Assembly (NCBI GenBank): GCA_951406725.2
Contig: OX597819.1
Coordinates: forward strand, 75,392,001 to 75,456,000
Source of the DNA: Octopus vulgaris
Taxonomy: Eukaryota
Direction of reading: 5' to 3'
Length of the DNA: 64,000 nucleotides
Shown: positions 12,331-61,903 of the stretch, one piece after another
Layout: each line of letters opens with the position of its first letter
How positions within the stretch are numbered: the stretch's first letter is position 1
The notes under the pieces: generated by a model
The model's input: only the letters and a program-made list of their open reading frames with translations
Database searches by the model: none
Told to the model about the DNA's origin: nothing
Translations under genes and position numbers: made by a program

Positions 12331-12614
12331 GAAATTGTTAAAGTTTGTATTGGTATAGGTTTTGAAATGAAAGGTAGAGAGGTAAGAGTTTTAAAATTAT
12401 TTTTCTTTGGTAAGGTTTTTTGTATGATTTGTCATACATTGGGCACTAATGTGTTAAAAGAAGTGTTGATGCTTATTTTCTCCATTCTTTGGTACTCTGC
12501 CTTATTTGCTTGTTAAAAAACTTCAATTATTATAAAAGTGAGTTTGGAGGAATATATTATCCAGGCAGATACCATATTAGCTCTCAATTAAGTTTCAGTT
12601 AACAGCTAACCACA

Positions 12615-25181: not shown

Positions 25182-28100
25182 TCAAGGAACTTATGTCGAC
25201 ATCAAAATGCACAAAAAACTTTTAGCTGACTGCTCTCAAGGAGCCCATGGCGATAATGAGTGTCTTTTTATAAGGAGTGACATCAGAGTGGCTGAATGTA
25301 GAAGAATCTAGAAGGTTCAAGGGTTCAAACGAAGTAGGAGGAGGGAGGCATAAGAATGGTAATGTGAGAGAGTGCAGGTCAAAGGAATGGTGGGTTTAAA
25401 TGATTTCTTTTATGAATGAGTGCCCGTGTGTGTGACTGTATATAACTGTCTTAATGCGTGTATGTGTGTGTCTGAATGCGTGATTGTGTTTGTGGATGGG
25501 TAGATGTCAGAAAACTGACAGCTGTGAGGTGAGAGGTCTGTGTGTTCGATTATGTTTACTGTAGAGAAAGGAAAGTAGATAGCGAAAGGGAGAAAGAATC
25601 GGGCGAGGTGAGAAGCAACGCCAGAATGGATAGTAGTAATTGGGAATATAAGAAAATCTTTTTGACTATTGGGGTGAAATATAGCAAAAATTTTTTGGGA
25701 AATCGAGGGTTTATCTATATTAGTCACTATTTATATGAGTGAAAGGTATGTCTTTTCCAGTGTAAACACCTGTAGGATCTTTCGACGATTGTATTTATTA
25801 AAGGGACTTAGGCGAACAAAATATGAAAAAGTTCGGAATTACAGATGCCACAAAATTTTCTGCTTTTATCAAACGGGAAGGACACCGATAAAATGGACCA
25901 TTCGAGCTTGAACGTAGTGTTATTGTTCTTCAGACTAATTTGCTTAGCCCCATGCTGTGTTGCTTTCTGTTATCTCTGAAAGTGGAATAATGCTTGGAGA
26001 TCCTTTGGGCTAATTTAGAAGAGGTTGCGCCAATGTAGAAGTAGACATCGGTTCCAGAAGAGATTTTGCATTGGTAAGTGGTGTTTCTAATTTTGGAATT
26101 TTTGGATAAGAACTTTAATCTGTTGGGGTTGGTTTCTGATACTAAGACAGAGTTTTTATTGTTGTGATAGGTGTAAAAATTGTTGCTGGCTTTGGCCACG
26201 ATACTATTCATCTTATTATCATTACTATTAGTTGTAATATCGTCGGCAAATTCCCTGGCTATAGGAATGCTGCGATTGTTATCATCAATAATATAACTGT
26301 TATTTAGAATGCTGGTACTATTACCACTAACACCACCACTGTTAATAATCTGGCTAATGTTATCATTATTACTATTGCTAACGCTAATGCTGCTATGAAT
26401 GTTGCTAATATCCATACTACTTCTATTATTATTATTATTGTATGTTACGTTGGAATGGGTAAGAGCGGTGTCGCTACTCATGGGTGATGAGACCCTATTT
26501 AGCAGCTTATTATTGTGGGAAGCTATTATCTGCGAAAGATTTTTAGTATTTGAGAATGCTATTCTTACTTTATGCGAATTTATAGTGGAGTAGTATCTAG
26601 AATTCCTAGGAAAATTCTTAGCAACGGCTTCACGGAATTGTAAAGGGAGATTAGACCTGATTTGTCTCCCGAAAGGAATCACAAACCAGATATAGTTTTT
26701 TTTGTTCTTGGAATGGCTGAGAGTGTTGACATTTACATTAAAGGGTATATTTCTGTGTTGTAGAATGGGTTTTGGTTTACGCTGGCCTCCCCTGGTCCGT
26801 AAATTATTATTGTAAAATATATTTGTGTTGACGTTGCTAGAGCTGAAATCACTATTTATGTTATTTATATTATTATTAGAAGTTATCTTATCTTGATGGG
26901 CAGATATTAGTTTAGGATGGGCCGGATCGATATAAGATACCTTATCCCTATAACCGGCCTTTGACAAGGCGGCATTATAAAATTCCACTTTCTGTTTAAA
27001 AATGTCGACATTTGCTGATAACTTTGATAGTCTTAAGGACCGCCGCAGATGTCCGGGAATTGGTCGGCTAATTCATATAGAATATAGATTCCGACCAAAT
27101 CGGCTATCTGGGCGCTATCTGAGCTTCCCATTGGCACATCGAACGCGTTGGGAGTATCCTTATGAACCCATAACTTATCATCGAATTGAATGAAGGATTT
27201 TCTAGCGGCTAGAATTATATTAATTTCCTCCCTTGTCAGCCCTGTCTTGTTATGTGCATGCCATAGGGCCTTATTGAGCACGCTGGGGTTTATCGAAGGG
27301 TAGAAATTGGAAATATCGAATTGAATGAATTTAGTGCTATTTTTATTAGAAATGGAAGAGAACCATTCTACGACTTGAGTGGAGTTAGACCATATGTTGA
27401 GTTTAAGCTTATTAACTAATCTAGGTATGTATTTATCTAAAATGTACTTACTGATGGAACCGATGTCGGAACTAGAAGGGCAAATGAACCTTAAAGCTGG
27501 GTTGGTTTGGAAGTTTGGTTTATGGTCCTTGACGATGAATCTTGGTTGCCTTGGGTTGAGTGGTTGTGTTTTCATTTGCAAACCATGAGTAACCATGATT
27601 TTCTTAATTTCCAAGTTGGCTTTTCTAAGTGTATCCTTATTCGTAGTTCTGTAATTCTTCTGTATTTCCTTCTTGAGCAATTCTAAATACTGGTTTTTTG
27701 CTAGCTTGTATGTATTCCTGGTTTTATCTGATTGGACCAGGATAGCGTCTGAGCTGTTTATATCTTGGGTAATTTTGTTGAGGTATCTAAGGTGTTTATT
27801 CCTAAGGGGCGATTTACGGAATTTAATGCTCCTTACAATGTCCCACAAGCCGTCCTCAAATTTCTTCAGTCTGGGATTAGGTGGCGGTGTCTGCCTCGAC
27901 TTGAATAGCTTCTTATATTCGGAAGATGTTTCTGTACCGTTCTGTTTTAAGTCCTTGTTATCATGGAAGAAAGCGAGCCATCTAATTCGGTTGATGAATG
28001 CATTTGTTTTGTTGACAATTTCCTTACGGAAGGTTTCTTTTGGTGGTATTGGTATGTCCTTAAGGGATGCGTTAATCTCGAACAACTCCATTTGCGGTAT

Positions 28101-28341
28101 CTGTTAAGGTAGCAGGATCTGGATGAAGCTGTATATGAATATTTGAGTAGTTGAATGAATTATCTTATTAAGGATAATTCGAAAGATAACCGATACCTGG
28201 GTAGCAAATTCACATCAGAAAGAACACGGTTGAAGCTACGTCCCTAGGGCATAGACTACGTGTGGAAATTTGTATGTTTATTTTAAAATTATAAGTATAT
28301 GAAAGAATGGAGTTGAACGACTAGTTAACAAATATCCTTTA

Positions 28342-28424
28342 TTCTCGACATATGTTTCGAAGGCTGCATATTCCTAATTCCGAAGGAATAAGGAGTACAT
28401 TATGCAGATTTCTCATCAGGAAAA
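28342..28424 (-). ncRNA. Type I hammerhead ribozyme (second pLTR of copy 1)
   Basis: Same sequence as 25099-25181. Confidence 0.85.
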
Positions 28425-28977: not shown

Positions 28978-29050
<73 letters not shown>

Positions 29051-29257
29051 TGAAGTAGATAAATGAATTATCTTATTACGGATAATTCAAATGCTAACCG
29101 ATACCTGGATAGCAAAAATCTCAACAGAAAAAGCACGCTTGAAGTTATGACCATGGGGCATAAAAACCGTGCCTTAGTGCGGAAATTTGAAGTTTTATAT
29201 ATTAAGTGTAGGAAAAAATGGAGCTGAACGAAGATTTAACAAAATTCCTTTATATTA

Positions 29258-29341
29258 TTTTCTACATATGTTTCGAAGGCTGCAAAGTCCCTAATTCGGA
29301 TTGAATAAGGAGTCCATTTTGCAGCTTTCTCTTCAGGAAAA
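29258..29341 (-). ncRNA. Type I hammerhead ribozyme
   Basis: ttttc CTGAAGA gaaagctgcaaa...tttgcagccttc GAAA catatg TA gaaaa. Confidence 0.85.
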
Positions 29342-31873
29342 ATCCAGGAACTTAATTCTCCAACAAAATGCACAACAAGCTTTTCGACAAACGCTCACGA
29401 GGAGCCCATGAAATAAATGACACAAACTGTCTATCTATATGCGTTGACGCCAGACTGGGTGAAAGCAGAAGAGATTGTCCGTTGAGATAGTTCAAGGTCA
29501 GAATCCGGTTGGCAGAAGTGGGGTACAGGAAAATCAAAGAGAGTGAATGTATTCTGTATGACTGGTGTTTCTATTTGAATTATTTTAAGAATGAGTGTTA
29601 GTGTTTGAGTGTGAGGAATTGCTTTAATGTAAGTGTGTGTGCGTCTATGTATGTGTGACAGTGTGTTTCGAAGGCAGAAAGAGAGAGAGAGATATAGCAG
29701 GTATTAATGGTCAAGAAACTGAAAAAACTGTCTGTGTGTTCGTATGTGACCACTTGATAGAGAGAGGGTGTCCACAATGGCCATGGCAGGATACAGTGTT
29801 GCTGTCAGGGATGGCAGCAGTTCTTATACTAACAGGGAAGGGATATCACCTTTCAAATTTTTTTCTAATTTTTTAAAGAATTGGTATGAGAGAAAGGTAT
29901 GCCGTTTCCAGGGGGGGCATCTGAAAGAATTTTGCACAATCAAGTTAAAAAGGTGCCCTCGGGCGAACAAAATATGAAAAAGTTCTGAGTTACAAAGAGC
30001 ACAGATTTTTTTGCCCTTATCAAACAGTAAAGACACCGATAAAATTGACCATTCCAGTCTAAAAGTTGAATTCGCGTTCTTCAAACGCCAGACTAATTTG
30101 CTTAACCCCGTAGCGTGTTGCTTATCCTTATCACGGAACGTGGAAAAATGATTTGATATTCTAATGGCCAATTTTGATGATGAAGCTCCGATATAAATGA
30201 AGACATCGGATTCAGTATAAACTCTGCACTGGTAAATGGCGTTTCTAATCTTGGAGTTGCTAGATAAGCACCTTAATCTATTGAGATTGGTTTCCGATAT
30301 TAATACATCGTTCTTATTACTATGATGATTGTAAAAACTACCGCTGGATTCGATATTATTCACCCCATTATCATTACTATTTAAGGCAATATCACCTGCA
30401 TATTCCCTGTTACTGGGAATGCTGTGATTGATAATGTCCGTAATACTACTGTTGTTAAAACCGCTGCTAATATTATTGTTGGGACTCCCTACGTTAATGA
30501 CGAGATCAGTGCTCTTATCCTTATTACTATTACTAACTCCAATGTTGGTATGAAGGTTGCTAATATCTGTGCCAGTTCTATTATTATTATTACTATTACT
30601 GCGCGTTATGTTGGAATTTGACGGAGCAGAGTCTCTGCTCATGGGTGAGAGGGCCTTATTTAGCAGCTTATTGTTATGGGAGGAAATTATCTGTGAAAGA
30701 TTTTTAGTATTGGAGAAGGCTATCCTTACTTTGTGCGAATTTACAGTGGGGTTGTAGTGGATGTGTGGATGTATTAATAAATACATAAGTTGTTTTGTAA
30801 TAAATTAGAGATTTATTTTCACTACATCAATTTGTAAGCAATGCTACACATTGCTTGTACAGAATGCATATTAAATAATGCTTGCACAGAATACATATTA
30901 AAGAATGCTTATACATAATACATATTAAAGAAGAATATGTTTGATGGTGTGTGTGTGTGAGTAAATCATGCAGGACAGTCACCTTTATGCATATTCTCTC
31001 GTCGTCTCCAAAAATGCGTAGCGTTCGTTTAGGCGTCGGCTCCGGTTCTCCCTAGATACTGATTTTTCCGTTCTATTTATAAAATCTCAAATAGCCAGAA
31101 AAATAGATATATCGCAAGAGAGTTATCGTTTAAGTAGGTCACTGGCCGTTCAGTTAAACTTCGCCTGACCTGGTTCAGGTCAGAGGTCAAAGGGAGACGA
31201 TCCATCACTTTTTGTCAGAACAAAGGAATCTTGATTTCGCGCCTTTGCATGCATTGGTATTTGACGACCGATGATTCTTGGATTTGATTTCGAATCCAAG
31301 CTTAGAGAAGGAAGTGCTAACTCTTACACTACCCCCCTTCTAGTGAGAAAGCCACAGAGATCAAACGATATTGGAAAAGTATTTTTTTTTTTTTTTGTGT
31401 GCATGCAGAAAAAAAAATTTTTACACATTGAACGATAAAAATATGCATGAAAGGTTTACAGTTTGTATGTGCTATATGGTGGGCAATATGTATATGTGCC
31501 CAGGCAGAATTATGTTGGCGCGTTGAAAGAGATGTGCGTCTATTGATTACTCGACCTACTAGAGGTCTAATAGAGGCAAGGTGTCTTTCAGTGGCGAAAA
31601 AAATCGAGTGATAGCACGCATGAGAACAAGATTTGTAAATTGTGTGGATATACAGTTAGCAAAAATATATTTATAAGAAAGCAAAGCATTTTGAAGAGAA
31701 AACAAAAAATATGTACATGCAAAAATGAAAGAAATGTTCATCGGCAAAAGTTTGATTTTGAAATGTTCCGTAAAAGTTCATACAGACAGTTTTTTTTTGT
31801 TTTCATTTTTTTTTTCTTTATGTACACAAATGTTCTTTGATTTCTCTGGGTGGGTGATGCAGTTATGTGTTCA

Positions 31874-34800
31874 TTAGGAAGATGGATACGTTAGGAGTTC
31901 AGAACTTACCCGAAAAACTTGCACAAACCTTGCTGGCCATCGAACTGTTCTTCCTGATTTGGTGTGTCGGGGTTGTGCAGAATCTGTGGTGTTCGCTGGA
32001 GTTGCCGAGTCTTTTCGAGGAAAAGAGGGGACTGAATGTAAGTCCTCCTCGATGAAAGCTTTTTTTAAACGATCAATCGAGACCGTATTTCGTTTACCTC
32101 CAATATCGAGGACGAAATACTTGGGTTCTCTTTTGATGACCTTGTAGGGCCCGGAATATGGTGGTCGAAGTTGAGAGGGTATCCCATCATTCCTCACGAA
32201 GACATGAGTCCAAGTGTTGATATCTTTTGGGACACGTGAAACGACGTTCTGTTGTCTGGGGCCTGAAGGTGATAACTGCGACATGGATGTCCGTAATCGG
32301 TGCACATATTGTTGTGGGTCAGGGAAGTTTTGTGAAACAGGTTTGATCATCTGCCCAGGTAAGGTGAGTTCGGCCGGAGTATATCCCAGTTCTTCCTTAA
32401 TCGTGGATCGAATTTCAAGGAGGATGAGAGGGAGATGTTCCAACCAGTGAGAACTGTCTGGAGCTGCTTTGATAGATGCCTTGAGTTGGCGGTGAAAGCG
32501 TTCGACCATGCCATTTGCTGCAGGGTGGTAAGCTGTAGTGCGGGTGTGTTTACATCCGAGGAGACGAGTCAGCTCGGTGAAAAGGTGGGAATCAAACTTA
32601 CGTCCTCTGTCGGTAGTAATTGTTGCGGGTGTGCCAAAACGCGAAACCCATTGTGATATCAGCGTTTTAGCGACCGTTTCTGCTGAACCTATCGCGAGAA
32701 CCTATCTACGCAAGTTAGCAAATACGAATCATTCTGCGAAGGCGGTAGGGGTCCAACGATATCAATGTGAACGTGCTGAAATCGTGCGTCGGGTTGCGAA
32801 AATGAACCGATTGGTGATTTTATGTGCCAGTGGATTTTCGCTTTTTGGCACGCAACACAGCACTTGGTCCATTCTCTGATATCCTTGTTGATACTGGTCC
32901 ACACAAAATGGGTCGATATCAGCTTTTGAGTGGAGCGAATACCAGGATGTGACAGAGAATGCAGAGCGGAGAAAACTTCTCGACAATATTTCTGTGGTAC
33001 ATAAGGGCGTTGGTAACCAGTGGAAATATCACATCAAATATGGGCTGTGGATGATGGTAGCGGAACATGCTGAAATTTCAGAGATGACGAATTCCGGAGC
33101 TTTAGAAGTGCTATACGTGCCAGATCAATTGTAGACGTGGTGTGGATAGCATTGATCTGCGCACGTGAAAGTGCATCGGCTGCTACGTTGGTCGTCCCTC
33201 TGATGTGGCGTATATCCGTCGTGTACTGCGATATGAAATCGAGGTGGCGGATTTCTCTCGGCGAGTGGCGATCCGGCTTGGTGTTAAATGCGTATACTAA
33301 TGGCTTGTGCTCGGTGTATATGGCAAAATTTGTACCTTTTAGCATGTGACGGAAATGCTTAACGGCCAGGTATGCCACCAATAATTCCCGACTGAATGTG
33401 CTGTACTTGGTTTCCGCGGGTTTTAACCGCTTAGAAAAGAAAGACAACGGTTGCCATATACCGTCAACAAGCTGTTGTAGCACACCTCCAATTCCAGAAT
33501 CGGATGCATCAACGAGTAAACATCGTGGGGCGTCTGGTTTTGGATAAACCAGCATGGTAGCGCTAGATAACACTTTTTTCAGGGCAGCGAAAGAAACGAG
33601 TTGATCTTCCGTCAGAGCTATATCTGCCTTTTGCAGGTTCGCTGACGTAGCAAATCCGTGAGCGGTTGCGCTATTTCAGCGAGGTGGGGCACGAACCGTC
33701 GATAGAAATTCGCTAGACCGAGATATTCCCTTAATTTGCGGAGAGATGTGGGTGGTGGAAAATCCACGATGGCCATTACTTTCTCGGGAAGGGGATGAAT
33801 TCCATTATCATCGACGATGTGCCCGAGAAAATAAAGGGAAGCAACTCCGAACAAACATTTAGTAGGGTTGATAACCACACCAAATTGACGGAGACGTTCG
33901 AATAGCAGGTGAAGGTGTTGATTATGTTCTTCATCCGAGTTACTGGCCACGAGTATGTCGTCTATGTATGCATAGACGAAAGGCAAACCTCTAGTCACCA
34001 TGTCGATAAACCTTTGGAATGTCTGTGCCGTGTTTCGTAAACCGAAAGGCATACGCAGGAATTCAAACATTCCGAAAGGTGTAGTAACTGCTGTCTTTGA
34101 GATGTCCGCAGGTTCGACTGGGATTTGGTTGTATGCTCGCACCAGGTCGATTTTGGAAAAGACGTGAGCTCCATGCAGCGAGCTCGAAAAGTCCTGAAGA
34201 AAAGGCACCGGATAGGCATCACTGATAGTGCTTTTATTCAGTGATCGATAATCGCCGCAAACCCGCCAATCGGTCGATGATTTTTTTGGGACGCAGTGTA
34301 TCGGCGAGGACCAGTTGCTGCTGGAAACGCGGATGATTCTGAGGTCGAGCATGTGCTGGAATTCCCGCTTGACGGCCTGGAGACGATCAGGTGGTAACCT
34401 TCTGGGCCTTGCAGCAACAGGTGGACCGCTGGTTTTGATGTGGTGGGTAACGTCGTGTTTTATCGGGTGGTTATGGAAAACTGGTCGCGCGACATCTGGA
34501 TATTCATTCAGGATGGAACTGTGACGAGTCGTTGTCGTTAGCATTACAGTTGGGCTGACTGTGTCCATTCGAGCGGCTATACCGCGCACAGTAAGCTTGG
34601 TGGTGGTGTCGACAAGTCGTCTGTTCTTTATGTCTACCAGGAGACCGAAATGATGCAAGAAATCGGCTCCTAAGATAGGGGTCGGCAGTTTAGCGACGGC
34701 GAATACCCACTGAAATGTGCGGCGTAGTCCTATGTTCAATGTTAGGGACTGTTCACCGTAGGTTGGAATGGGTGAATGGTTGACTGCCTGAAGACAGACT

Positions 34801-34973
34801 GATGTCTCTTTTCTTTTTCCAGAAGTGTTGGAGACTGGGATGATGTTGACTTCCGCACCTGTGTCAACCAGGAAACGCGTGCCTGTTACACGATCACAAA
34901 CGAAAAACAGGCGACTGTGTGGGTGCGAACCAGGAACTTCCATCGCGTTCAATTCCTGGCTGTGCCGTTTCCC
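31874..34973 (-). pseudogene. pol: Gypsy pol (PR-RT-RNase H-IN), frameshifted and partly deleted
   Basis: LVDTGA, YIDD, DASD..ELL, integrase HIDIVGP and [11 protein letters not shown] motif. Confidence 0.93.
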
Positions 34974-35824
34974 GAACTGGGTGAGGAAAACGAGCACGGT
35001 ACCGTACATTTTTGTGCCCGTGTTCCGAATGTTCGGTGGTACCAACACGTGTCATGTGAGTTGCGGGTAGCACTGGGGCTTCGGGACCGTCTGCCATCTC
35101 GTCGAGATTGGCTGGTGCTTCGACGCTGGGGACTAAGCTTTAGGGCTTGTATTTGGGCTGTGAGGATTTGTATTTGCGCAGCTTGCTGCGTCATTAATGC
35201 ACGCAAATCCGAAATCTCGGAAGAACTGGTTTGTGCACGGAAAGGATTGGTACTGGGAGCGGCTGGCGTCATCGTCGATACCGTTGGATATTTGTGCTGT
35301 ACTTCGGCTATTTTGTCAGCTAGCTCCGCCAGTTCTTCAAGGGATGTGTTTTCTCTGGTAGACGTGAGAACAACCTGGGTATTGGAGGGCAGATGCTGGA
35401 GAAAAAGTTGCTTGAATATTTTTTCTGGGAGCGTCTCATCTCCGAGAAGCTGCTTCATTCTACGAAGAAGCTGGGCCGGCGTTTTGTCACCCAATTCTTC
35501 CGATATCAGAAGCTGGTGAAGTCTTTTTTGTTGGGATTCGGAGGTTCTGTTTATCAACGTGGTTTTAAAAACTTCGTATGAAACAGAACCGGGTGGTGCC
35601 ATGATAAGGTCACGTATTACATTCGTTATTTCTGGCGACAGAGAACCGATAACATGAGAAAGGCGAGACGCATCGCTCAGTATTCTGTGAGAGGCAAACT
35701 GTGCCTCTATATGGTAAAACCATAATGTAGGGTCGTGGGTCCAGAATGGTGGAATTTTTAAAGAAATCGCCGCTTGGAATGCCATGTCGATGTTGGCCGC
35801 TGGATTCTGTTCCGGGAGGTCCAT
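34949..35824 (-). CDS. gag: Gypsy gag
   Basis: [21 protein letters not shown] and C-terminal [14 protein letters not shown]; overlaps pol at slippery G GGA AAC (34973-34967). Confidence 0.92.
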
Positions 35825-38556
35825 TGTTTTCGTCGGAATTTTCAGTTGCTTGGTTGCTGGGTGATGTGCAAACTGTAATTCTTCGACGCGGTTGATGAAG
35901 CTGGTTCCGGGGAAGGCGCGATTCGTTTTACGGGGTCACCAAATGTCGTGGATGTATTAATAAATACATAAGTTGTTTTGTAATAAATTAGAGATTCATT
36001 TTCACTACATCAATTTGTAAGCAATGCTACACATTGCTTGTACAGAATGCATATTAAATAATGCTTGCACAGAATACATATTAAAGAATGCTTATACATA
36101 ATACATATTAAAGAAGAATATGTTTGATGGTGTGTGTGTGTGAGTAAATCATGCAGGACAGTCACCTTTATGCATATTCTCTCGTCGTCTCCAAAAATGC
36201 GTAGCGTTCGTTTAGGCGTCGGCTCCGGTTCTCCCTAGATACCGATTTTTCCGTTCTATTTATAAAATCTCAAATAGCCAGAAAAATAGATATATCGCAA
36301 GAGAGTTATCGTTTAAGTAGGTCACTGGTCGTTCAGTTAAACTTCGCCTGACCTGGTTCAGGTCAGAGGTCAAAGGGAGACGATCCATCACTTTTTGTCA
36401 GAACAAAGGAATCTTGATTTCGCGCCTTTGCATGCATTGGTATTTGACGACCGATGATTCTTGGATTTGATTTCGAATCCAAGCTTAGAGAAGGAAGTGC
36501 TAACTCTTACAGGGTAATATCTTGAATTTCTGGGAAAATTTCTGGCAATTGCTTGGTGAAACTGCAACGGTAGGTTAGATCTTATTTGTTTACCAAAGGG
36601 AATTACAAACCAGATATAGTTATTCCTGTTCTTGTACTGGCTCGGAGAGTCAACTCTAGCATTAAGGTGGGTATCTCTGGGTTGAATAATGGGTTTTGGC
36701 CTACGATGGCCTCCCCTGGACCGCAAATTATTTATGTTATCTATATTTATGCTAGTTGTACTTGTATCGACATTCCTAAGGCTACCATCACTATTTATAT
36801 TATTTATATTATTATAAGTTGACTTATCCTGACGATAGAATACTGGTTTCGGAAGGGCCGGGTCTATATATGTTACCTTTTCCCTATAACCTGCTTTTGA
36901 CAGGGCGGCATTATAGAATTCCGCTTTCTGCTTAAAAATGTTGACGTTGGCAGATAAATTTGATAATCTTTGAGAAATATTTTAAACTAAATTATCTGTT
37001 ATAGTTTTTGCGTGGTTAGAGAAAACACTGACATACTTTAGGTTAGTGGAAGGTTTATGGTAGGGGCAGTAAGAATCGCTATGCAGGTTTAGTGTGACAT
37101 CTAAGAAATTTGCCTTGGTAAGTTCGTTATCAAAAACTATGCTCATGCCCATCCTATTAAAGAACCTGGCTAATCTATTTTTAGTTTTCTGTACTATTCT
37201 GTTCGGGGTGTTCTGTAGGTAAAACAGACAATCGTCACGATATAGGACGCCGCCGATGTCCGGGAATTGGTCGGATAATTCATAGAGAATATAGATTCCG
37301 ACCAAATCGGCAATCTGGGCGCTATCTGAACTTCCCATAGGAACATCGAACTCGTTGGGAGTATCCTTACGAACCCATAACTTATCTTCAAACTGTATAA
37401 AGGATTTTCTGGCGACTAGAATTATATCAATTTCTTCTCTTGTGAGGCCTGCCTTATTATGTGCATGCCACAGGGCCTTATCGAGTACACTAGGGTTAAT
37501 CGAGGGGTAGAAATTAGCAATATCGAACTGAATGAACTTAGTTCTGTTTTTATTCGGGATAGAAGAGAACCACTTTACGACTTGCGAGGAGTTCGCCCAA
37601 AGATTAAGCTTAAGCTTATTAACTAAACTAGGAATGTATTTGTCTAAAATGTACTTAGTGATGGAACCGATGTTGGAACTAGAAGGGCATATGAGCCTTA
37701 ATGCTGGATTGGTGTGGAAATTTGGTTTGTGATCCTTAACGATGAATCTAGGTTGTCTTGGGTTAAGGGGTTGTGTTCTCATTTGAAGCCCATAATTTAC
37801 CATAATTTTCTTAATCTCCAAGTTAACTCTTCTCAGTGTATTCTTATTTGTAGTTCTATAGTTCTTCTGGATCTCTTTCCTGAGTAATTCTAAGTACTGG
37901 TTTATAGGTATCTTGTAAGTATTCCTTGTTTTGTCAGATTGGACCAGGATTCCGTCTGAGCTGTTGATATCCTTAGTAATTTTCCCTAGGTATCTAAGGT
38001 GTTCATTCCTACGGGGCGACTTCCTGAATTTAATGCTCCTTACAATGCCCCATAAGTCGTCCTCAAATTTCTTCAGTCTGGGGTTACGTGGTGGCGTCTC
38101 CATCGACTTGAAAAGCTTCTTATATTTGGATGATGTTACGGACCGGTTCTGTTTTAAATCCTCGTTATCATGAAAGAAAGCGAGCCATCTGATCCGGTTG
38201 ATGAATGCATTTGTTTTGCAGACAATTTCCTTAAGGAAGGTTTCCTTTGGTGGTATAGGAATGTCCTTAAGGGACGCGTTAATCTCGAACAACTCCATTT
38301 GCGGTATCGGTTAAGGTAGCAGTTTGGTGGCGAAGCTGTATATGATTATTGAAGTAGATAAATGAATTATCTTATTACGGATAATTCAAATGCTAACCGA
38401 TACCTGGGTAGCAAAAATCACAACAGAAAAGGCACGGTTGAAGTTATGACCATGGGGTATAAAAACCGTGCCTTAGTGCGGAAATTTGAAGTTTTATATA
38501 TTAAGTGTAGGAAAAAATGGAGCTGAATGAAGATTTAACAAAATTCCTTTATATTA

Positions 38557-38640
38557 TTTTCTACATATGTTTCGAAGGCTGCAAAGTCCCTAATTCGGAT
38601 TGAATAAGGAGTCCATTTTGCAGCTTTCTCTTCAGGAAAA
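38557..38640 (-). ncRNA. Type I hammerhead ribozyme (5' pLTR of copy 2)
   Basis: Same sequence as 29258-29341. Confidence 0.85.
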
Positions 38641-38885: not shown

Positions 38886-41800
38886 TATTATTGGTGAATT
38901 GAAGAAATGGAGCTGAACGAAGATTGAACAGAAATCGTTTTATTTCATTCTACACGTGTTTCGAAAGGCACAATTTACCAAAATCCGATTGAATAATGAG
39001 ACCATATTGTGTCTTTCTCTTCAGGAAGAAATAGGAAATCCGTTGGAAAAAACAAAAACAGAACAGAGGCGGAGCAAAACAAATCGAACTAGGCTCCTAA
39101 GAGCCCATGGCAAAACTGTTTATCAGTCTATGTTGAGAACCGGTGGTTGAAGATTTTAACAGGTCAGGCAGCGGTCATTCCTGTGGGTGAGGGTGTGTAG
39201 ATGTTCTTTGTGACCGAGAATAAAGTTCTGACTATTTAAAGAATATTGGATGTATTATAAGGGGCGAGAAAAAATCTACTTAGAGACATGTGTGTGTTTA
39301 CTGTTCTATATATGTGTGCTGGCACAGGTTGGCAATAAGCGCTATTTTCTGGTCACTGCTGAGAACTCCGTCAAGGGGTAGAAAACATTTTTTGTGTACG
39401 TGTGTGCGTTTGATCGCTCGGCTGTCAGTTGTTAAACAGCTCTACACAATGGCTAATGCAGTAAAAGCCGTTGGGTGGCAGAAAAATATTTTATGTTTTA
39501 TGTGTGCGTGTGTTCGTCTAATCATGCCTTGTCAAAGAAACCCCCCGTCGTCAAAAACAAAGCCCCGTTTATCTCACAGGAGTAATTCCCCTTGCAGTGG
39601 TTAATCGTAATTATCTTAAAGGCTATTTCAGAATTTATTACCAAGGGCTATGGGTGCAGGTATTATTTATAAGCGTTATTTATAAGCCAGATAAGTGTAA
39701 CGCCGCCAATGGGGGCATCGAAAAGCCGACTGTAAAAGTCCGTTTACCATCCGGTCTCTGGCGAACAATATATGGAAGAGTTCGGAGACACAAAGGTTGC
39801 ACTTCCTTCTGCCCCTATCAAATGGGAGGGCCACCGACAAAATTGACCATTCCAGCCTGTAGCTTGAGTTCGTATCCTTCAATCGCCATATTAGCTTGCT
39901 GAGTCCCGTGGTCTGGCGTTTATTCATGTCTCGAAAAGTTGCGTAATGATTGGAGATTCGCAAAGCCAATCTTGACGATGAGGCCCCTACATAAGCGTAG
40001 ACATCTGAGTCCGTGTAAACCTTGCATTGGTAGACGGCGTTTCTGATCTTGGAGTTCGCCGACGTGAATCTTATTCTGCTAGGATTAGTTTCTGAAATTA
40101 GAACTGCGTTACTGTCACTATATTTGTTACAAGAACTGCAGCCGCTTACTACTTTATTTTCCACTACGTCACTATTAACTAACGGAATAACCCCTGATTC
40201 TCCACTATCTATCAGAGTGCTGTCATTGCTAGTGCCCGTGGTGTTGCTATTGCCGGAAATGATGCTGGGGTTGCTATTGGGACTCTCTACCCTACTGCCA
40301 TTGTTACCGTCAACCACAACACCCCTATTTATAACTATACCCCTAGTGTGTAATCCCTGGCTGGAGCTGAGATTATGAGTCACTGTACTGGCTCTCATAT
40401 CATTATTACTACTATAATTATTCCTACTGAGCATTAAACCGGGAGCGGAAGAGGCTGTGCCTCCGGAAAAAGGTGATAGGGTCTTAGTAAGCAGCCTATT
40501 ATTATGGGAGGCGATTATCTGGGCGAGGTTTTTAGTGTTGGAGAAAGCTATCCTAACTTTATGCGAGTTAACCGTGGAGTAATATTTGGAATTTCTGGGG
40601 AAGTTATTGGCGATGGCTTGTCTAAACATGAGGGGGAGGTTAGTTCTAATCTGCTTACCAAAGGGAATTACAAACCATATATGCTTATTCCTATCTATGT
40701 GATGGGTCGGGACGCCAGCTCTCGCATTCGGGTGGGTGATTCTCGGATGAATAACGGGTTTTGGGTTAGTGTGAGATCTCCCGGACCGATAATTATCCTT
40801 GTTCGCTAAATTAAATGCGGGAGCGACTGCCCCAGCACCCGCCGCGCTCCCGTCCCTACTTAAATTGTTTATGTTATTTTAGACGGCCCTATCCTGATGA
40901 CCGAATGATGGCATCGGAAGGGCCGGATCAATATAAATTACCTTCTGCCTATAACCGGCCTTGGATAGTGCGGCGTTATAAAATTCGCTTTCTGCATAAA
41001 AATATCGGCACTGGCGGACAAGCCAGACAATCTTAGAGAGATGTTTTTAACCAAATTGTCTGTTACGGTTTTGGCATGATTTGAGAAGACACTGACATAC
41101 TTCAAATTAGTGGAAGGCTTATGGTAAGGGCAGTATGAGTCGCTATTAAGGTTAAGTGTAACGTCTAGGAAATTAGCCTTGGTGAGTTCGTTATCAAAAA
41201 CTATATTCATGCCCATTCTATTAAAAAACCTAGCTAACCTGCTCTTAGTTTTCTGCACTATTCTGTTTGTGGTGTTTTGCAGGTAAAACAGACAATCGTC
41301 ACGATACAGGCTGCCCGCGATCTCCGGGAATTGGTTGGACAATTCGTAGAGAATATATATTCCGACCAAATCGGCTATCTGCGCACTATCCGAACTACCC
41401 ATAGGCACATCAAATTCATTGGGAGTATCTTTACGGATCCACAACTTATTATCAAACTTAATAAACGATTTCCTGGCAACTAAAATGATATCTATCTCTT
41501 CTCTGGTGAGGCCAGCCTTGTTGTGAGCATGCCAAAGGGCCTTATTTAGCACACTAGGGTTAATCGACGGGTAGAAGCTGGCGATATCAAACTGAATGAA
41601 CCTAGTACGGTTCTTATTGGGGATGGAAGAGAACCACTTCACTACCTGCGAGGAGTTGGCCCAGAGGCTGAGCTTCAGCTTGTTTACTAAACTAGGGATA
41701 TATTTATCTAAAATGTACTTACTGATTATCCCGATATCAGAGCTAGCAGGGCATATGAGTCTTAGCGCTGGGTTGGTGTGGAAGTTCGGTTTATAGTCCT

Positions 41801-42562
41801 TCACTATAAATCTGGGTTGCTTAGGGCTAAGCGGCTGCGTTCTCATTTGAATTCCGTGTTTAAATATTATTTCCTTAATTTCCAAGTTTACCTTCCTCAG
41901 GGTACTCCAATTGGTTTTTCTATAATTTTTCTTGATCTCTTTACCGAGTAAATCTAGGTACTGCTTAATGGGTAGCTTGTATGTGTTCCTGGTCTTGTCG
42001 GACTGGACCAGGACTCTGTCCGTTCTATTAATGTCCTTGGTAATTTTATCTAGGTATCTGAGGTGGGCATTTCTCCTGGGTGACTTCCTGAACTTAATCT
42101 TTCTAACTATGTTCCACAAGTCGTCCTCAAACTTCTTCAGTCTTGGGTTAGGTGGTGGCGTATCCAATGTTTTAAAAAGCCGGCCGTATTCGGACAATGC
42201 TGTTGTCCGGTTCGATTTTAGATCTTCGTTCTCGTGGAAGAAAACGAGCCATCTTATCTGGTTTATGAATGCGTTGGTTTTACAAACCAACTCCTTAAGG
42301 AAGGCGTCCTTCGGTGGTATAGGAATATCCTTAAGGGACGCATCAATCTCGAACAACTCCATTATTGGTATCGGTTAAAGTAGCAGTTTCTTGACGAAGC
42401 GGTATGTATTTTGTGAAATAGAAAGATGAATAATCTTGTAGCAGATTAATCAAAAGTTTAACCGATACCTTGGTAGCAAAAATCACAGCAGAAGACAGCA
42501 CGGTTGGAGGTACAACCATATGGTGTTGCAACCGTGCGTTGGTGCGGATAATTGAATTTTAA
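38886..42562 (-). mobile_element. Naiad-like PLE copy 3, full length with frameshifts
   Basis: ORFs 40938-42362 (RT, YRDD) and 39676-40629 (linker plus GIY-YIG AVYQC..YVGASS..CNLCVSE). Confidence 0.92.
38944..39030 (-). ncRNA. Type I hammerhead ribozyme
   Basis: ttcttc CTGAAGA gaaagacacaat...attgtgcctttc GAAA cacgtg TA gaatgaa. Confidence 0.85.
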
Positions 42563-45500
42563 TATTATTGGTGAATTGAAGAAATGGAGCTGAACGAAGA
42601 TTGAACAGAAATCGTTTTATTTCATTCTACACATGTTTCGAAAGGCACAATTTACCAAAATCCGATTGAATAATGAGACCACATTGTGTCTTTCTCTTCA
42701 GGAAGAAATAGGAAATCCGTTGGAAAAAACAAAAACAGAACAGAGGCGGAGCAAAACAAATCGAACTAGGCTCCTAAGAGCCCATGGCAAAACTGTTTAT
42801 CAGTCTATGTTGAGAACCGGTGGTTGAAGATTTTAACAGGTCAGGCAGCGGTCATTCCTGTGGGTGAGGGTGTGTAGATGTTCTTTGTGACCGAGAATAA
42901 AGTTCTGACTATTTAAAGAATATTGGATGTATTATTAGGGGCGAGAAAAAATCTACTTAGAGACATGTGTGTGTTTAATGTTCTATATATGTGTGCTGGC
43001 GCAGGTTGGCAATAAGCGCTATTTTCTGGTCACTGCTGAGAACTCCGTCAAGGGGTAGAAAACATTTTTTGTGTACGTGTGTGCGTTTGATCGCTCGGCT
43101 GTCAGTTGTTAAACAGCTCTACACAATGGCTAATGCAGTAAAAGCCGTTGGGTGGCAGAAAAATATTTTATGTTTTATGTGTGCGTGTGTTCGTCTAATC
43201 ATGCCTTGTCAAAGAAACCCCCGTCGTCAAAAACAAAGCCCCGTTTATCTCACAGGAGTAATTCCCCTTGCAGTGGTTAATCGTAATTATCTTAAAGGCT
43301 ATTTCAGAATTTATTACCAAGGGCTATGGGTGCAGGTATTATTTATAAGCGTTATTTATAAGCCAGATAAGTGTAACGCCGCCAATGGGGGCATCGAAAA
43401 GCCGACTGTAAAAGTCCGTTTACCATCCGGTCTCTGGCGAACAATATATGGAAGAGTTCGGAGACACAAAGGTTGCACTTCCTTCTGCCCCTATCAAATG
43501 GGAGGGCCACGACAAAATTGACCATTCCAGCCTGTAGCTTGAGTTCGTATCCTTCAATCGCCATATTAGCTTGCTGAGTCCCGTGGTCTGGCGTTTATTC
43601 ATGTCTCGAAAAGTTGCGTAATGATTGGAGATTCGCAAAGCCAATCTTGACGATGAGGCCCCTACACAAGCGTAGACATCTGAGTCCGTGTAAACCTTGC
43701 ATTGGTAGACGGCGTTTCTGATCTTGGAGTTCGCCGACGTGAATCTTATTCTGCTAGGATTAGTTTCTGAAATTAGAACTGCGTTACTGTCACTATATTT
43801 GTTACAAGAACTGCAGCCGCTTACTACTTTATTTTCCACTACGTCACTATTAACTAACGGAATAACCCCTGATTCTCCACTATCTATCAGAGTGCTGTCA
43901 TTGCTAGTGCCCGTGGTGTTGCTATTGCCGGAAATGATGCTGGGGTTGCTATTGGGACTCTCTACCCTACTGCCATTGTTACCGTCAACTACAACACCCC
44001 TATTTATAACTATACCCCTAGTGTGTAATCCCTGGCTGGAGCTGAGATTATGAGTCACTGTACTGGCTCTCATATCATTATTACTACTATAATTATTCCT
44101 ACTGAGCATTAAACCGGGAGCGGAAGAGGCTGTGCCTCCGGAAAAAGGTGATAGGGTCTTAGTAAGCAGCCTATTATTATGGGAGGCGATTATCTGGGCG
44201 AGGTTTTTAGTGTTGGAGAAAGCTATCCTAACTTTATGCGAGTTAACCGTGGAGTAATATTTGGAATTTCTGGGGAAGTTATTGGCGATGGCTTGTCTAA
44301 ACATGAGGGGGAGGTTAGTTCTAATCTGCTTACCAAAGGGAATTACAAACCATATATGCTTATTCCTATCTATGTGATGGGTCGGGACGCCAGCTCTCGC
44401 ATTCGGGTGGGTGATTCTCGGATGAATAACGGGTTTTGGGTTAGTGTGAGATCTCCCGGACCGATAATTATCCTTGTTCGCTAAATTAAATGCGGGAGCG
44501 ACTGCCCCAGCACCCGCCGCGCTCCTGTCCCTACTTAAATTGTTTATGTTATTTTAGACGGCCCTATCCTGATGACCGAATGATGGCATCGGAAGGGCCG
44601 GATCAATATAAATTACCTTCTGCCTATAACCGGCCTTGGATAGTGCGGCGTTATAAAATTCGCTTTCTGCATAAAAATATCGGCACTGGCGGACAAGCCA
44701 GACAATCTTAGAGAGATGTTTTTAACCAAATTGTCTGTTACGGTTTTGGCATGATTTGAGAAGACACTGACATACTTCAAATTAGTGGAAGGCTTATGGT
44801 AAGGGCAGTATGAGTCGCTATTAAGGTTAAGTGTAACGTCTAGGAAATTAGCCTTGGTGAGTTCATTATCACAAACTATATTCATGCCCATTCTATTAAA
44901 AAACCTAGAAACCTGCTCTTAGTTTTCTGCACTATTCTGTTCGTGGTGTTTTGCAGGTAAAACAGACAATCGTCACGATACAGGCCGCCCGCGATCTCCG
45001 GGAATTGGTCGGACAATTCGTAGAGAATATATATTCCGACCAAATCGGCTATCTGCGCACTATCCGAACTACCCATAGGCACATCAAATTCATTGGGAGT
45101 ATCTTTACGGATCCACAACTTATTATCAAACTTAATAAACGATTTCCTGGCAACTAAAATGATATCTATCTCTTCTCTGGTGAGGCCAGCCTTGTTGTGA
45201 GCATGCCAAAGGGCCTTATTTAGCACACTAGGGTTAATCGAGGAGTAGAAGCTGGCGATATCAAACTGAATGAACCTAGTACGGTTCTTATTGGGGATGG
45301 AAGAGAACCACTTCACTACCTGCGAGGAGTTGGCCCAGAGGCTGAGCTTCAGCTTGTTTACTAAACTAGGGATATATTTATCTAAAATGTACTTACTGAT
45401 TATCCCGATATCAGAGCTAGCAGGGCATATGAGTCTTAGCGCTGGGTTGGTGTGGAAGTTCGGTTTATGGTCCTTCACTATAAATCTGGGTTGCTTAGGG

Positions 45501-45860
45501 CTAAGCGGCTGCGTTCTCATTTGAATTCCGTGTTTAAATATTATTTCCTTAATTTCCAAGTTTACCTTCCTCAGGGTACTCCAATTGGTTTTTCTATAAT
45601 TTTTCTTGATCTCTTTACCGAGTAAATCTTTCGAAACACGTGTAGAATGAAATAAAACGATTTCTGTTCAATCTTCATTCAGCTCCATTTCTTCAATTCA
45701 CCAATAATTTTAAAATTCAATTATCCGCACCAACGCACGGTTGCAACACCATATGGTTGTACCTCCAACCGTGCTGTCTTCTGCTGTGATTTTTGCTACC
45801 AAGGTATCGGTTAAACTTTTGATTAATCTGCTACAAGATTATTTCATCTTTCTATTTCAC

Positions 45861-45861
<1 letters not shown>
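42563..45861 (-). mobile_element. Naiad-like PLE copy 4: tandem partial duplicate of copy 3 with an inverted 5' piece (45628-45861)
   Basis: Near-identical to copy 3 from 38886 to about 41955; 45628-45861 is the reverse complement of about 42412-42643; ends in (TA)n. Confidence 0.92.
42621..42707 (-). ncRNA. Type I hammerhead ribozyme (junction of copies 3 and 4)
   Basis: As 38944-39030, but stem III is CATGTG. Confidence 0.8.
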
Positions 45862-45899
<38 letters not shown>

Positions 45900-46526: not shown

Positions 46527-48098
46527 TCAATGAGAATGATGCAGCTGACTACAGTCATTTACCAGTTTGTCAAAATTAGGTGTCAAGTTGCTTGTGCTGA
46601 TTCTTAACACTGACTGAAGATTTGAGTCTGTGAGAAGTGATCGATTCTTCCTCTTGTTAATTTTCATGATGGAGAAAGTCTGCTCACATATGTAAGTTGA
46701 TGCAAACAACACAAACATCTTTCTTGCAAATTTTTTTAGATTTTGAAACTTTTTTGAATGTAGAGAAGCACAAAACTCGACCAGTGGTTTACTTTCAAAC
46801 ATCATCTTTAAAGAATTGTCGGCTTGCAAATGAATCACTTCTATCTGCAGTTCCTCGATAGTTGTTTCAATGTCACAGGCAAGAGGTGAGTTAAGCAAAT
46901 CGAACAGGCCTTCAACTGCCTTGAAATCAGCAAATCTTCTAATGAATTCCTTTTGTAAAGCCATCAACTGGGAACTGTACTTGTCCGATGATTCTTGTGT
47001 AACAGACTGTGTTTTCAGCAGAGGGAAGTGAATAAATTTTTGCTCATTCAGCTGCTTGGCAAAAAGTCCAAGCTTCCATTGAAAAGCTTTCACTTCCAGG
47101 TACAATTCATGAGCAAATATACCTTTGCCTTGCAGTTTTGTGTTAAGTTCATTCAGCTTCTGCATTATGTCCACAGCAAATGCAAAATCACAAACCCATT
47201 CGTCACTCTCCATTTCGTTTAAAAAGTCGCAGGAGATGTCTTGCATTTTGAGAAACATAAGAATCTCTGCTTTGAGGTCCCATACTCTCTTAAGAACTTT
47301 TCCAATGCTTAACCAGTGGACATTTGTGTAGTACAGCACATCAGTAAAATCAGCCTCCACATCCTCCAAGAAACTTCGGAATTGCCTGTGTTTCAATCCC
47401 CGTGATCTTATTAAATTCACTGCACGCACCACAGGTTCGATGACATGTTTGAGTTTTAAAGATGACTTACAAAGGCTTTCTTGATGTATGATGCAGTGAA
47501 AAGACAACACACTGTGTAGTGGAAAATCTTCTTTGATTTTGTCATTCAACAACTTCACAAGGCCGGAATGTTTACTGGTGAGTGAAGGAGCTCCATCGGT
47601 TGTAATGCTGGCCAGTTTATTTAGGGTTAATCCAGACCTGATTGAACTGTTAATGACACTGTTGAACAAATCTTTTCCAGTAGTAGTGTCTTTGAGAGAC
47701 TCCATAGATATCAATTCTTCTGTAATTTCAAAGTTTTCATCAATTCCTCTGATGTAAATGAGTAACTGAGCAGTATCCTGAATATCTGTACTCTCATCTA
47801 AAGCAATAGAAAACCACTGAAATCGACCACTGGCTGTTAACAGCTGTTCATGAATATTCACGGCAATTGCATCAATGCGACGAACAATAGTTCTTCCTGA
47901 CAGGGAAATGGCTTCTACTTTTAACTTAACTTCAGGACACACAACGCTGACAGCATCAACCATACAATCTTTGATAAATTCTGCTTCTGCGAATGACTTG
48001 TTTTGCTTTGCAATTTTGTTGGCCAATATAAAACTTGCCTTTGTCGCGTTCCTTTGTAAAGAGGAAGTTTTATCAAACACCTTTTGCTGTTGCTTCAA
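46527..48098 (-). CDS. hAT transposase (Charlie/SPIN/GTF2IRD2-like); N-terminal Zn finger disrupted
   Basis: SIALDESTD, SITTDGAP, HCIIHQE, HWLS, STYICEQTFS; TIR-like CAGGGGTGGGCGAACTTTTT at 46025; partner TIR not found. Confidence 0.88.
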   Translation of the reverse strand: MKQQQKVFDKTSSLQRNATKASFILANKIAKQNKSFAEAEFIKDCMVDAVSVVCPEVKLKVEAISLSGRTIVRRIDAIAVNIHEQLLTASGRFQWFSIALDESTDIQDTAQLLIYIRGIDENFEITEELISMESLKDTTTGKDLFNSVINSSIRSGLTLNKLASITTDGAPSLTSKHSGLVKLLNDKIKEDFPLHSVLSFHCIIHQESLCKSSLKLKHVIEPVVRAVNLIRSRGLKHRQFRSFLEDVEADFTDVLYYTNVHWLSIGKVLKRVWDLKAEILMFLKMQDISCDFLNEMESDEWVCDFAFAVDIMQKLNELNTKLQGKGIFAHELYLEVKAFQWKLGLFAKQLNEQKFIHFPLLKTQSVTQESSDKYSSQLMALQKEFIRRFADFKAVEGLFDLLNSPLACDIETTIEELQIEVIHLQADNSLKMMFESKPLVEFCASLHSKKFQNLKKFARKMFVLFASTYICEQTFSIMKINKRKNRSLLTDSNLQSVLRISTSNLTPNFDKLVNDCSQLHHSH

Positions 48099-48955
48099 AC
48101 GTTTTGTCAGATCATTTACTTTCTTTTGCAGTTCTTGTTTTGATAAAGTGGTGGATTACCGATTCGACTGAGCAACAATCAATGCATGCACAATACACAA
48201 CGTCCGAAAACAGTCCAAATTAAAGTCTTTTTCTTCTCTTCAACAATTCTTTTGACACATTTCAATAGATTACAGTTTGTCACAATGCCCTTTTCCTTCT
48301 TTTTCTTTTTTTCCACAGTTCTTTTTTTTCTGACACAATGTTCTTTTTCCTTTTTGTCAGTCTTTCTGTTTTTTTAACACAACTCACAAGTTCTTTTCTC
48401 TTTTCTTTTACATTTCACATCAACATCCAAAATTCAACAACAAAAACATAAACATTACCGCATGTTCCGAGTCTGCAACAATTTCAGCTCCTTCTACAAA
48501 TAGCCATGCCTTCTCGCCGTCATCTCCATCTCACTCCCTTATCCCCTCCGCTCATGGTCTGGCTGACTGTCTCTGGCCAACTCTCTGTTGCCAACTCAAT
48601 TCCTCTCGGCAACTGCACCTCTAGCCAACTGACTGTCTCTGCCCAAACTGACCAACTAACCCCCAGCTCTCCGCATTTTAAAGGGGTGGCAGATTTATTT
48701 TTTTCTCAACTTTGCTTAACCAGATATGGGTCAGAGGTACCTTCCAACCTCATTAATTTCCCTTACCGGTGACAAGACAAAGGCCCATAACTTGTTTCGC
48801 CAGTCCATCTGGCACCAAACCACGAAACTGGGTCATAGCACTTTTTCCTCAACTGACCTCGTATCTATATATATAAATATAAAAATTTTTATTTTTATGT
48901 TCAGTGACAATGAAAACAATTTTACAATGGGTTATTCTCTACTTTTATTTATTAG

Positions 48956-61359: not shown

Positions 61360-61436
61360 GTTCTGTATTTAAGAGATGAGGAATTATGTATATTATTTAC
61401 ATTTGACGGATATTTGTGCTCATCTTGTTTCTTGTT

Positions 61437-61482
61437 AACACAACATTTCGGCTGATATACCCTCCAGCCTTCATCAGGTGTC
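61437..61482 (-). ncRNA. Minimal hammerhead ribozyme (left arm)
   Basis: gacac CTGATGA aggctg...cagcc GAAA tg TT gtgtt. Confidence 0.65.
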
Positions 61483-61551
61483 TTGGGAAAATTTCCAACC
61501 TGGGTTCTCATTCCAAAAGTATTTTTTTTCAATGTTATCATTATTATGATC

Positions 61552-61657
<106 letters not shown>

Positions 61658-61676
61658 TCACATTATTATTCGCGAT

Positions 61677-61717
<41 letters not shown>

Positions 61718-61800
61718 TAATAATAATAATAATAATAACAACAATAATAACATTGAAAAAGTACCTTAGGAATGAGAGCCCAGGTTCGAAATTTCCCCAA

Positions 61801-61846
61801 GACACCTGATGAAGGCTGGTGGGTATATCAGCCGAAACGTTGTGTT
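61801..61846 (+). ncRNA. Minimal hammerhead ribozyme (right arm)
   Basis: gacac CTGATGA aggctg...cagcc GAAA cg TT gtgtt. Confidence 0.75.
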
Positions 61847-61903
61847 AACAACAAACAAGATGAGGACAAATATCCATCAAGTGTAAATAATGTACATAAT
61901 GTA

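Follow-up and report, generated by a model that had tools for sequence, protein, structure and literature searches.

A predicted leader fold and two candidate internal start sites for reverse transcription in Hydra-clade Penelope-like elements of Octopus vulgaris

The leader of a Hydra-clade Penelope-like element (PLE) of Octopus vulgaris probably forms an RNA domain that defines two internal start sites for reverse transcription, one for each strand of the target, while masking the AUG of the open reading frame (ORF). We analysed a stretch of 64,000 nucleotides (the window) that carries several copies of this element, together with related copies and families elsewhere in the genome. One helix of the leader, P3, covaries; insertions end at two fixed AU-rich sites, here called S1 and S2; two-ended insertions carry one end of each kind; and private variants are shared between the repeats of an insertion. 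As judged from structure prediction, the leader would form five helices (P1-P5) that leave both sites single-stranded and pair the AUG within P1 (Table 1).

Table 1 Positions in the window of the Hydra copies and of the leader features of copy 2
Feature	Position	Strand	Remark
Type I minimal hammerhead, copy 2	38556..38640	-	CUGAAGA 38635-38629, GAAA 38573-38570; motif scan
P1, 5' arm (core CAGCTCCATTT, 38525-38515)	38515..38541	-	predicted to pair with AUG and first codons; folds
S2, upstream insertion end, candidate priming site	38495..38505	-	AU-rich, predicted single-stranded
P2 hairpin (core GCACGGTT/AACCGTGC, 38471-38432)	38408..38488	-	basal CAA/TTG helix, then first CTAC motif; fold
P3, 5' arm GGTATCGGTTA	38394..38404	-	inside terminal repeat; previously read as donor
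Proposed 68-nt GT-AG intron	38336..38403	-	splicing unsupported
P4 inner hairpin GAATTATC/GATAATTC	38364..38387	-	folds
S1, main 3' end, candidate priming site CAATAATCATATAC	38338..38351	-	within loop closed by P3
P5 small hairpin CAG...CTG	38316..38338	-	then second CTAC motif; CAG previously read as acceptor; folds
P3, 3' arm TAACCGATACC	38303..38313	-	only where terminal repeat joins gene
P1, 3' arm including start codon (ATG 38298)	38290..38300	-	fold
Copy 2 Hydra ORF, RT part	36516..38298	-	stop at 36984-36982; broken near 36515 by LTR retrotransposon
Copy 2 remainder: endonuclease region and 3' terminal repeat (29537-29042)	29042..30749	-	repeat ends at S1 in (TA)n
Copy 1 hammerhead and leader (subfamily B)	28083..28419	-	3' repeat ~25305-25049 ends at S2
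Copy 3 hammerhead and leader (subfamily C, CCG not CAG)	42354..42701	-	3' repeat 39152-38882 ends at S2
Inverted arm, copy 3/4 tandem insertion	45628..45870	+	ends at S1 in (TA)n

Judging from domain order, motifs, hammerhead and (TA)n targets, the element of copies 1-3 is a Hydra-clade PLE. This clade, which includes Hydra-1_Obim, is defined in section 11 of Craig et al. 2021 (PMC8557442). Translations and alignment place the reverse transcriptase (RT) region first and an endonuclease-like region at the C-terminus, with neither a CxC domain nor an N-terminal endonuclease. All three copies encode RIRWL and SDKT; the corresponding RW[K] and DK[T/S] motifs recur in 14 aligned homologues, the K of RWK being L in the window copies. 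In total 28 homologues were found, of which the 14 aligned are 34-41% identical, and tblastn matched homologue residues 575-690 to positions 40044-39697. A Pfam search returned no family for the Hydra proteins, so the GIY-YIG assignment is based on motifs and homologues: CCHH is absent, and CxxC and CxH motifs flank conserved E and N residues (CNLCVSELF...VN...RCPHW at 39676-40878, minus strand). The element also has a hammerhead in its terminal repeat and lies in (TA)n. Relative to the Hydra clade as presented in the text of PMC8557442, the unit is longer (3.2-3.7 kb rather than under 3 kb), and the CxCX5C linker, which we found in homologues P0001, P0003-P0007 and others, was not recognisable in the translations of the window copies, a long N/S-rich stretch standing in its place. 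Such stretches separate RT and endonuclease at 25930-27072, 29824-30804 and 39676-40878 (minus strand) and resemble N-rich insertions reported from the Penelope ORFs of rotifers (PMC3846280).

An initial annotation of this DNA had called the copies Naiad-like. This label has to be replaced, because the N-terminal RT, DKT, R-x-RW, the hammerhead and the (TA)n targets together identify Hydra. For a Naiad element, an N-terminal GIY-YIG endonuclease with a CxC domain would be expected, and the ORF opens instead with the RT N-terminal region; a canonical hammerhead should be absent, and CUGANGA...GAAAC cores are present in all copies. The copies are nested in one another's (TA)n tails, and copies 3 and 4 form a tandem pair with an inverted arm. 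As this arm ends at S1, the insertion has one S1 and one S2 end. A protein search revealed four further Hydra families in the genome (D, E, F and G). We also observed a subfamily-C tandem trimer (L136-L137, C1:119513300-119526500) with identical leaders at a spacing of 3624 bp. Within copy 2 lies an LTR retrotransposon (30761-36511, minus strand) whose 569-bp LTRs are 99.3% identical; it matches DUF7041, protease, RT and integrase, its frames are broken, and we take it to be of the Ty3/Gypsy type.

The letters and coordinates that the initial annotation gave for the three leaders proved accurate. A GT-AG segment of 68 nt runs from GT at 38403 to AG at 38336 in copy 2 and occupies 28196-28129 in copy 1, and copy 3 has GT at 42468 and CG at 42401-42400 where AG would be expected. 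The arm that carries the GT pairs with sequence just before the AUG: 38404-38394 with 38313-38303 in copy 2 (11 bp, ending 4 nt before the ATG at 38298), 28197-28187 with 28106-28096 in copy 1 (one mismatch) and 42469-42457 with 42379-42367 in copy 3 (13 bp). This pairing of 11-13 bp is real and conserved, being kept in a distant family of the same genome through four double changes. The hairpin described inside the 68-nt segment was likewise found in all three copies. The hairpin reported upstream of it, which forms the core of P2, is exact in copies 2 and 3 and has only a shortened variant in copy 1. The leader is thus conserved and structured as claimed, with genuine covariation; the statement that the sequence around the pairing diverges needs qualification, as the leader as a whole is conserved at the level of structure.

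The best reading of the predictions is that the leader from the hammerhead to the AUG forms a single, multi-branched RNA domain, in which the pairing noted earlier is one helix, P3. We presume that the hammerhead cuts between 38562 and 38561, a position taken from the hammerhead consensus. A search of Rfam returned no match at the gathering score, and its four chance matches all lay far below. Stem II of the hammerhead (38569-38635, minus strand) has an unusually long insert in subfamilies A-C, with ~55 nt between CUGAAGA and GAAA. In the predicted fold, the 5' strand of P1 lies ~40 nt after the cut, and the start codon would be hidden by this outer stem, which the earlier description lacked; the AUG has an unpaired probability of at most 0.05 in all three copies. 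Folded from the hammerhead cut to +28/+30, the copy 2 leader was more stable than all 200 shuffled sequences (z = -6.3, 0/200), as was that of a subfamily-C copy (z = -5.9, 0/200). The leader of family E, unrelated in sequence, adopted the same topology (z = -5.3, 0/200 shuffles), and the fold of family D was weak (z = -1.4, 20/200).

An alignment of 17 leaders, in which family D aligns with subfamilies A-C, allowed the helices to be compared. P3 was 95% paired and 4 of its 11 pairs had changed on both sides; family D forms it from GGTAACTATTCA/TGAATAGTTACA, and all four double changes derive from the one lineage split between D and A-C rather than from many events. P1 was paired in 95% of cells, with one double change, and RNAalifold recovered both P1 and P3 unaided. 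P2 was 73% paired and out of register in family D, its basal helix being conserved with zero double changes. In P4, a single pair has changed on both sides, the change separating subfamilies A/B from C. P5 has 6 bp in family D; subfamily C and L144 do not form its middle pair. For the twin basal helices, i.e., the base of P2 and P5, no covariation was found in these leaders.

P3 closes 4 nt before the AUG in A-D; in family F, where it is bulged, the distance is 5 nt. The bulged stem was recovered in L285 and missed by the minimum-energy fold of L205 (z = -0.8). L285 is a decayed leader in the window (12466-12587, minus strand) with the bulged stem GGTA-TCTGCC/GGCAGA-G-TACC before the ATG. In family G (L299), a long stem closes just before the AUG; like the stem of family E, it is analogous and unrelated in sequence, and both lie outside the 17-leader alignment. 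We also inspected 28 Hydra loci from metagenomes, 10 of which have a readable ORF start. An exact-stem scan of these 10 leaders found no P3-like stem except for one palindromic repeat, and the seven metagenome Hydra leaders that we folded gave mixed results for masking of the AUG and no clear P3. Five distant metagenome leaders (L172, L174, L179, L180 and L190) contain a twice-repeated hairpin of the GCTC...GAGCACT type between hammerhead and ATG. In the parts of PMC8557442 that we covered, which exclude its supplementary figures and the structures of File S2, neither a leader structure nor a priming site nor an intron is reported for Hydra elements. More broadly, we found no description of this fold or of AUG masking in Hydra elements in the literature covered, which was mostly open-access and excluded the supplementary figures of PMC8557442 and PMC11167929.

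The initial annotation had interpreted GT...AG as a regulated spliceosomal intron: the stem would hide the donor, with unspliced RNA serving as template and spliced RNA as message. In an amended version, splicing would remove S1 and one arm of P3, leaving only the unspliced RNA copyable. We consider an intron of this kind unlikely. By the initial annotation's own terms, an AG that is not conserved would refute the intron, and this is the case in one, young subfamily, C: none of its 30 loci has the AG (29 CG, 1 TG), and 15 of these 30 carry intact 899-aa open frames. Elsewhere the pattern is more favourable. CAG stands 14 nt before a conserved TGCTA in subfamilies A and B and also in family D, which is distant from them (together 34 of the 56 distinct leader contexts), families E, F and G have an AG ~3-15 nt after the insertion end, following a G-poor, pyrimidine-rich stretch, and subfamily C offers AAG as a second AG 11-12 nt downstream. 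However, four CTG contexts also lack the AG, and the CAG can be explained as the 5' strand of hairpin P5. In E and G the arm does not open with GT, and a segment running from GT to AG would measure 43 nt in family F and 77 nt in family D. At position +5 of a donor the consensus base is G, whereas A-D and F have C.

The switch proposed together with the intron fares no better, as the stem predicted to mask the AUG is another one, the outer helix P1. Without the 68 nt, the predicted fold still had the AUG paired (unpaired probability at most 0.04), while the stability fell from -69.7 to -45.7 kcal/mol. Contigs run unspliced across the predicted acceptor. Among the five joints listed for copies 2 and 3 in contigs of seven runs presumed to be RNA, none was a GT-AG joint; such contigs drop rare forms, and family D was outside this set. 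When genomic DNA was searched with four patterns for leaders in spliced form, 18, 2, 0 and 2 matches were obtained, none of them a spliced element; the 18 from the first pattern, which did not include the CTAAG variant, were unrelated DNA or leaders short of one G. Low-level splicing of the leader is possible. Precedents exist in the spliced 75-bp intron in the 5' UTR of Penelope of Drosophila virilis (PMC2377424) and in the Chlamys-3 intron, which spans the boundary of pLTR and body as the 68-nt segment would (PMC8557442). As in the accounts given there of Penelope and Chlamys-3_cRei, a short GT-AG segment lies upstream of the ORF at the repeat/body boundary; splicing was shown in those elements, whereas the youngest Hydra subfamily no longer has the acceptor.

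The insertion ends locate two sites within the leader. In the genome, 37 of the 40 best matches to the copy 2 leader stop at 38353-38337 and continue as (TA)n, and among 77 distinct ends of A-C, 72 of the 74 that were mapped lie at -55 to -40 from the ATG. This is S1, ~46 nt before the AUG, with an unpaired probability of 0.8-0.9 in the predicted fold. All 13 secondary leader matches end at query positions 221-234, near 38495. This second site, S2, lies ~197 nt before the AUG, and thus ~150 nt from S1, and has an unpaired probability of 0.96. Both sites are rich in A and U and share TA microhomology with the (TA)n target, and both ends lie ~6 nt before a helix closed by C-G and followed by CTAC. 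As S1 sits inside the P3 loop, just before the proposed AG, the second arm of P3 exists only where the repeat joins the gene. An end inside the corresponding loop was also found in families D (~-51), E (~-48), F and G; L303 ends ~27 nt past the usual family-G end, in leader-only sequence. Some copies stop their 3' repeat at S2 and have no S1 altogether. We examined 50 insertions with DNA on both sides, 28 of which had no typed second end in the DNA retrieved; the 22 two-ended insertions all have one end of each kind (16 S1/S2 and 6 S2/S1; Fisher p = 1.3e-5). Separately, L053, L055 and L056, on C31, C7 and C4, keep the whole leader to the base before the ATG and continue into unrelated sequence that they share, with the ORF start nearby in opposite orientation; they are possibly one duplicated, rearranged copy.

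These ends bear on a second explanation, in which the fold is mainly a translation element, i.e., a cap-independent entry site or a repressor, for RNA left uncapped by the hammerhead, and insertions end at S1 and S2 merely because these stretches are unpaired, AU-rich and able to anneal to (TA)n. Ribozyme-linked translation in R2-type elements provides a precedent, and the masking of the AUG by P1, the closure of P3 just before it and the AU-rich, TA-bearing character of both ends would all follow. However, it leaves unexplained why every two-ended insertion has one site of each kind and why both ends keep a fixed distance from the CUAC-tailed helices, and other AU-rich unpaired stretches of the leader rarely serve as ends. 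We thus regard it as quite unlikely.

The repeats of individual insertions provide a further line of evidence. In a set of 21 insertions of subfamily C, a mean of 0.81 changes per 90 nt separates 5' leader from 3' repeat within an insertion, against 3.79 between insertions, a likeness that none of 100,000 permutations reproduced. A private G three bases from the end of L128 also occurs in its own leader, and copy 2 has a private GGTTAGCAT variant in common between its 3' repeat and its own 5' leader. The registers of the ends vary among near-identical copies, while the leader junction of subfamily C is constant apart from point variants. Furthermore, 10 of 47 5' breakpoints fall at -46 to -62 from the ATG (Poisson 4e-7 against the rate at -63 to -446), a count affected by the selection of the top 40 matches. 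These patterns suggest that every insertion generates its ends afresh, through priming within the leader that spans the junction, and that the RT may later run into its own start, which would account for the 5' breakpoints near S1. Homogenised repeats, taken alone, would likewise be expected if the RT jumped at the 5' end of an RNA beginning near S1. An explanation in which a linear RNA begins near S1 and extends through the 3' repeat into (UA)n, this tail is where priming takes place, and the arms join the two ends of the RNA in a panhandle that guides the template jump rebuilding the 5' repeat, would accommodate the clustered breakpoints, the homogenised repeats and a TCATTT near -66 that we take to be initiator-like from its consensus, but it is highly improbable, as shortened ends would be inherited and erode a junction that stays constant in subfamily C while ends vary, copies ending at S2 have no S1, the end of L303 lies beyond the usual one, and contigs span the repeat/gene junction.

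For the reading that we favour, two start sites presented by the leader fold, the following mechanism can be envisaged. The unspliced RNA that spans the repeat/gene junction would fold, with P1, P3 and P5 formable only in this 5' copy. The RT-endonuclease, probably a dimer, would nick both strands of the (TA)n target, and the two 3' ends would anneal loosely to S1 and S2, a few bases before the C-G-closed helix with its CUAC tail. Copying might get past the 5' end of the RNA on a circular template, through a template jump or along a tandem transcript, and would then yield repeat-gene-repeat with an inverted arm. Protein binding or folding would withhold the RNA from translation, and each RNA would serve either as template or as message. 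Protein binding, priming and the effect of the leader on translation are steps that we infer.

The closest known system is PAc, a Poseidon element of Anolis, for which reverse transcription has been reported to start at two internal sites, within or beside a stem-loop, of an RNA that crosses the junction of pLTR and ORF (Frangieh et al. 2024, PMC11167929). According to the text of that study, both strands of its AT-rich targets are cut and extended, the genomic ends match the start sites, the stretch between the two sites corresponds to the 'tail', and hammerhead cleavage is not needed in vitro. The ends described here are similar in that they fall at two constant internal positions close to where pLTR and ORF meet (PMC11167929). 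The PAc starts, however, lie 111-118 nt inside the ORF in an AC-rich stem-loop, without homology to the target and with a tail of 30-40 nt, whereas the Hydra sites lie upstream of the AUG, ~150 nt apart, enclosed by long-range stems and with one per strand, and are AU-rich with TA microhomology to (TA)n (PMC11167929). The evidence also differs in kind: initiation was shown in vitro for PAc, and the Hydra sites derive from genomic ends and a predicted fold (PMC11167929). A circular template running from hammerhead to hammerhead has been proposed for PLEs, with no priming site named in the text concerned (Cervera and de la Pena 2014, PMC4209133); it would explain the more-than-unit copies, the homogenised repeats and the breakpoints at the start site found here.

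How PLEs choose their template, rebuild their terminal repeats and acquire inverted ends is stated to be open in section 15 of PMC8557442 and in the Discussion of PMC2377424. On these questions, a deeply diverged clade now contributes start sites at nucleotide level, a strict rule of one site per strand and a covarying fold with natural compensatory variants, and the existing in vitro system could test the question of the start sites. If one fold both presents the template and masks the AUG, the choice of template would be coupled to translation in the mobile elements most closely related to telomerase.

Epsilon of hepadnaviruses, which overlaps a start codon, and telomerase RNA, with its template and boundary helix, are cis-acting folds that present an internal template to their own RT. 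The likeness of the Hydra leader to them is conceptual only, as here priming would be by target DNA and at two sites. A bolder version of our reading would make the leader a telomerase-RNA-like cis element and switch, which clamps two sites of primer alignment for a dimer of the RT, hides the AUG and also serves as an intron in the older families. We hold this to be rather improbable. If it were true, removal of the intron would delete the main priming site, so that spliced RNA could not be copied, and this would explain why PLEs retain 5' introns through retrotransposition.

The window contains further mobile elements. Additional pieces of Penelope-like ORFs with DKS/DKG-type motifs and no Pfam match occupy 563-2008, 9857-11905 and 14468-16355 (minus strand), with a CxxxxCxxC linker at 14468-15451 and a hammerhead core at 11661-11615. 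At 61383-61900, two inverted arms with compact hammerhead cores (61477-61445 and 61806-61838) surround an (ATT)n palindrome. A non-LTR-type RT with a zinc-binding region lies at 18170-19904 (minus strand), and a frame of 542 aa at 46527-48155 (minus strand) encodes a hAT-type transposase.
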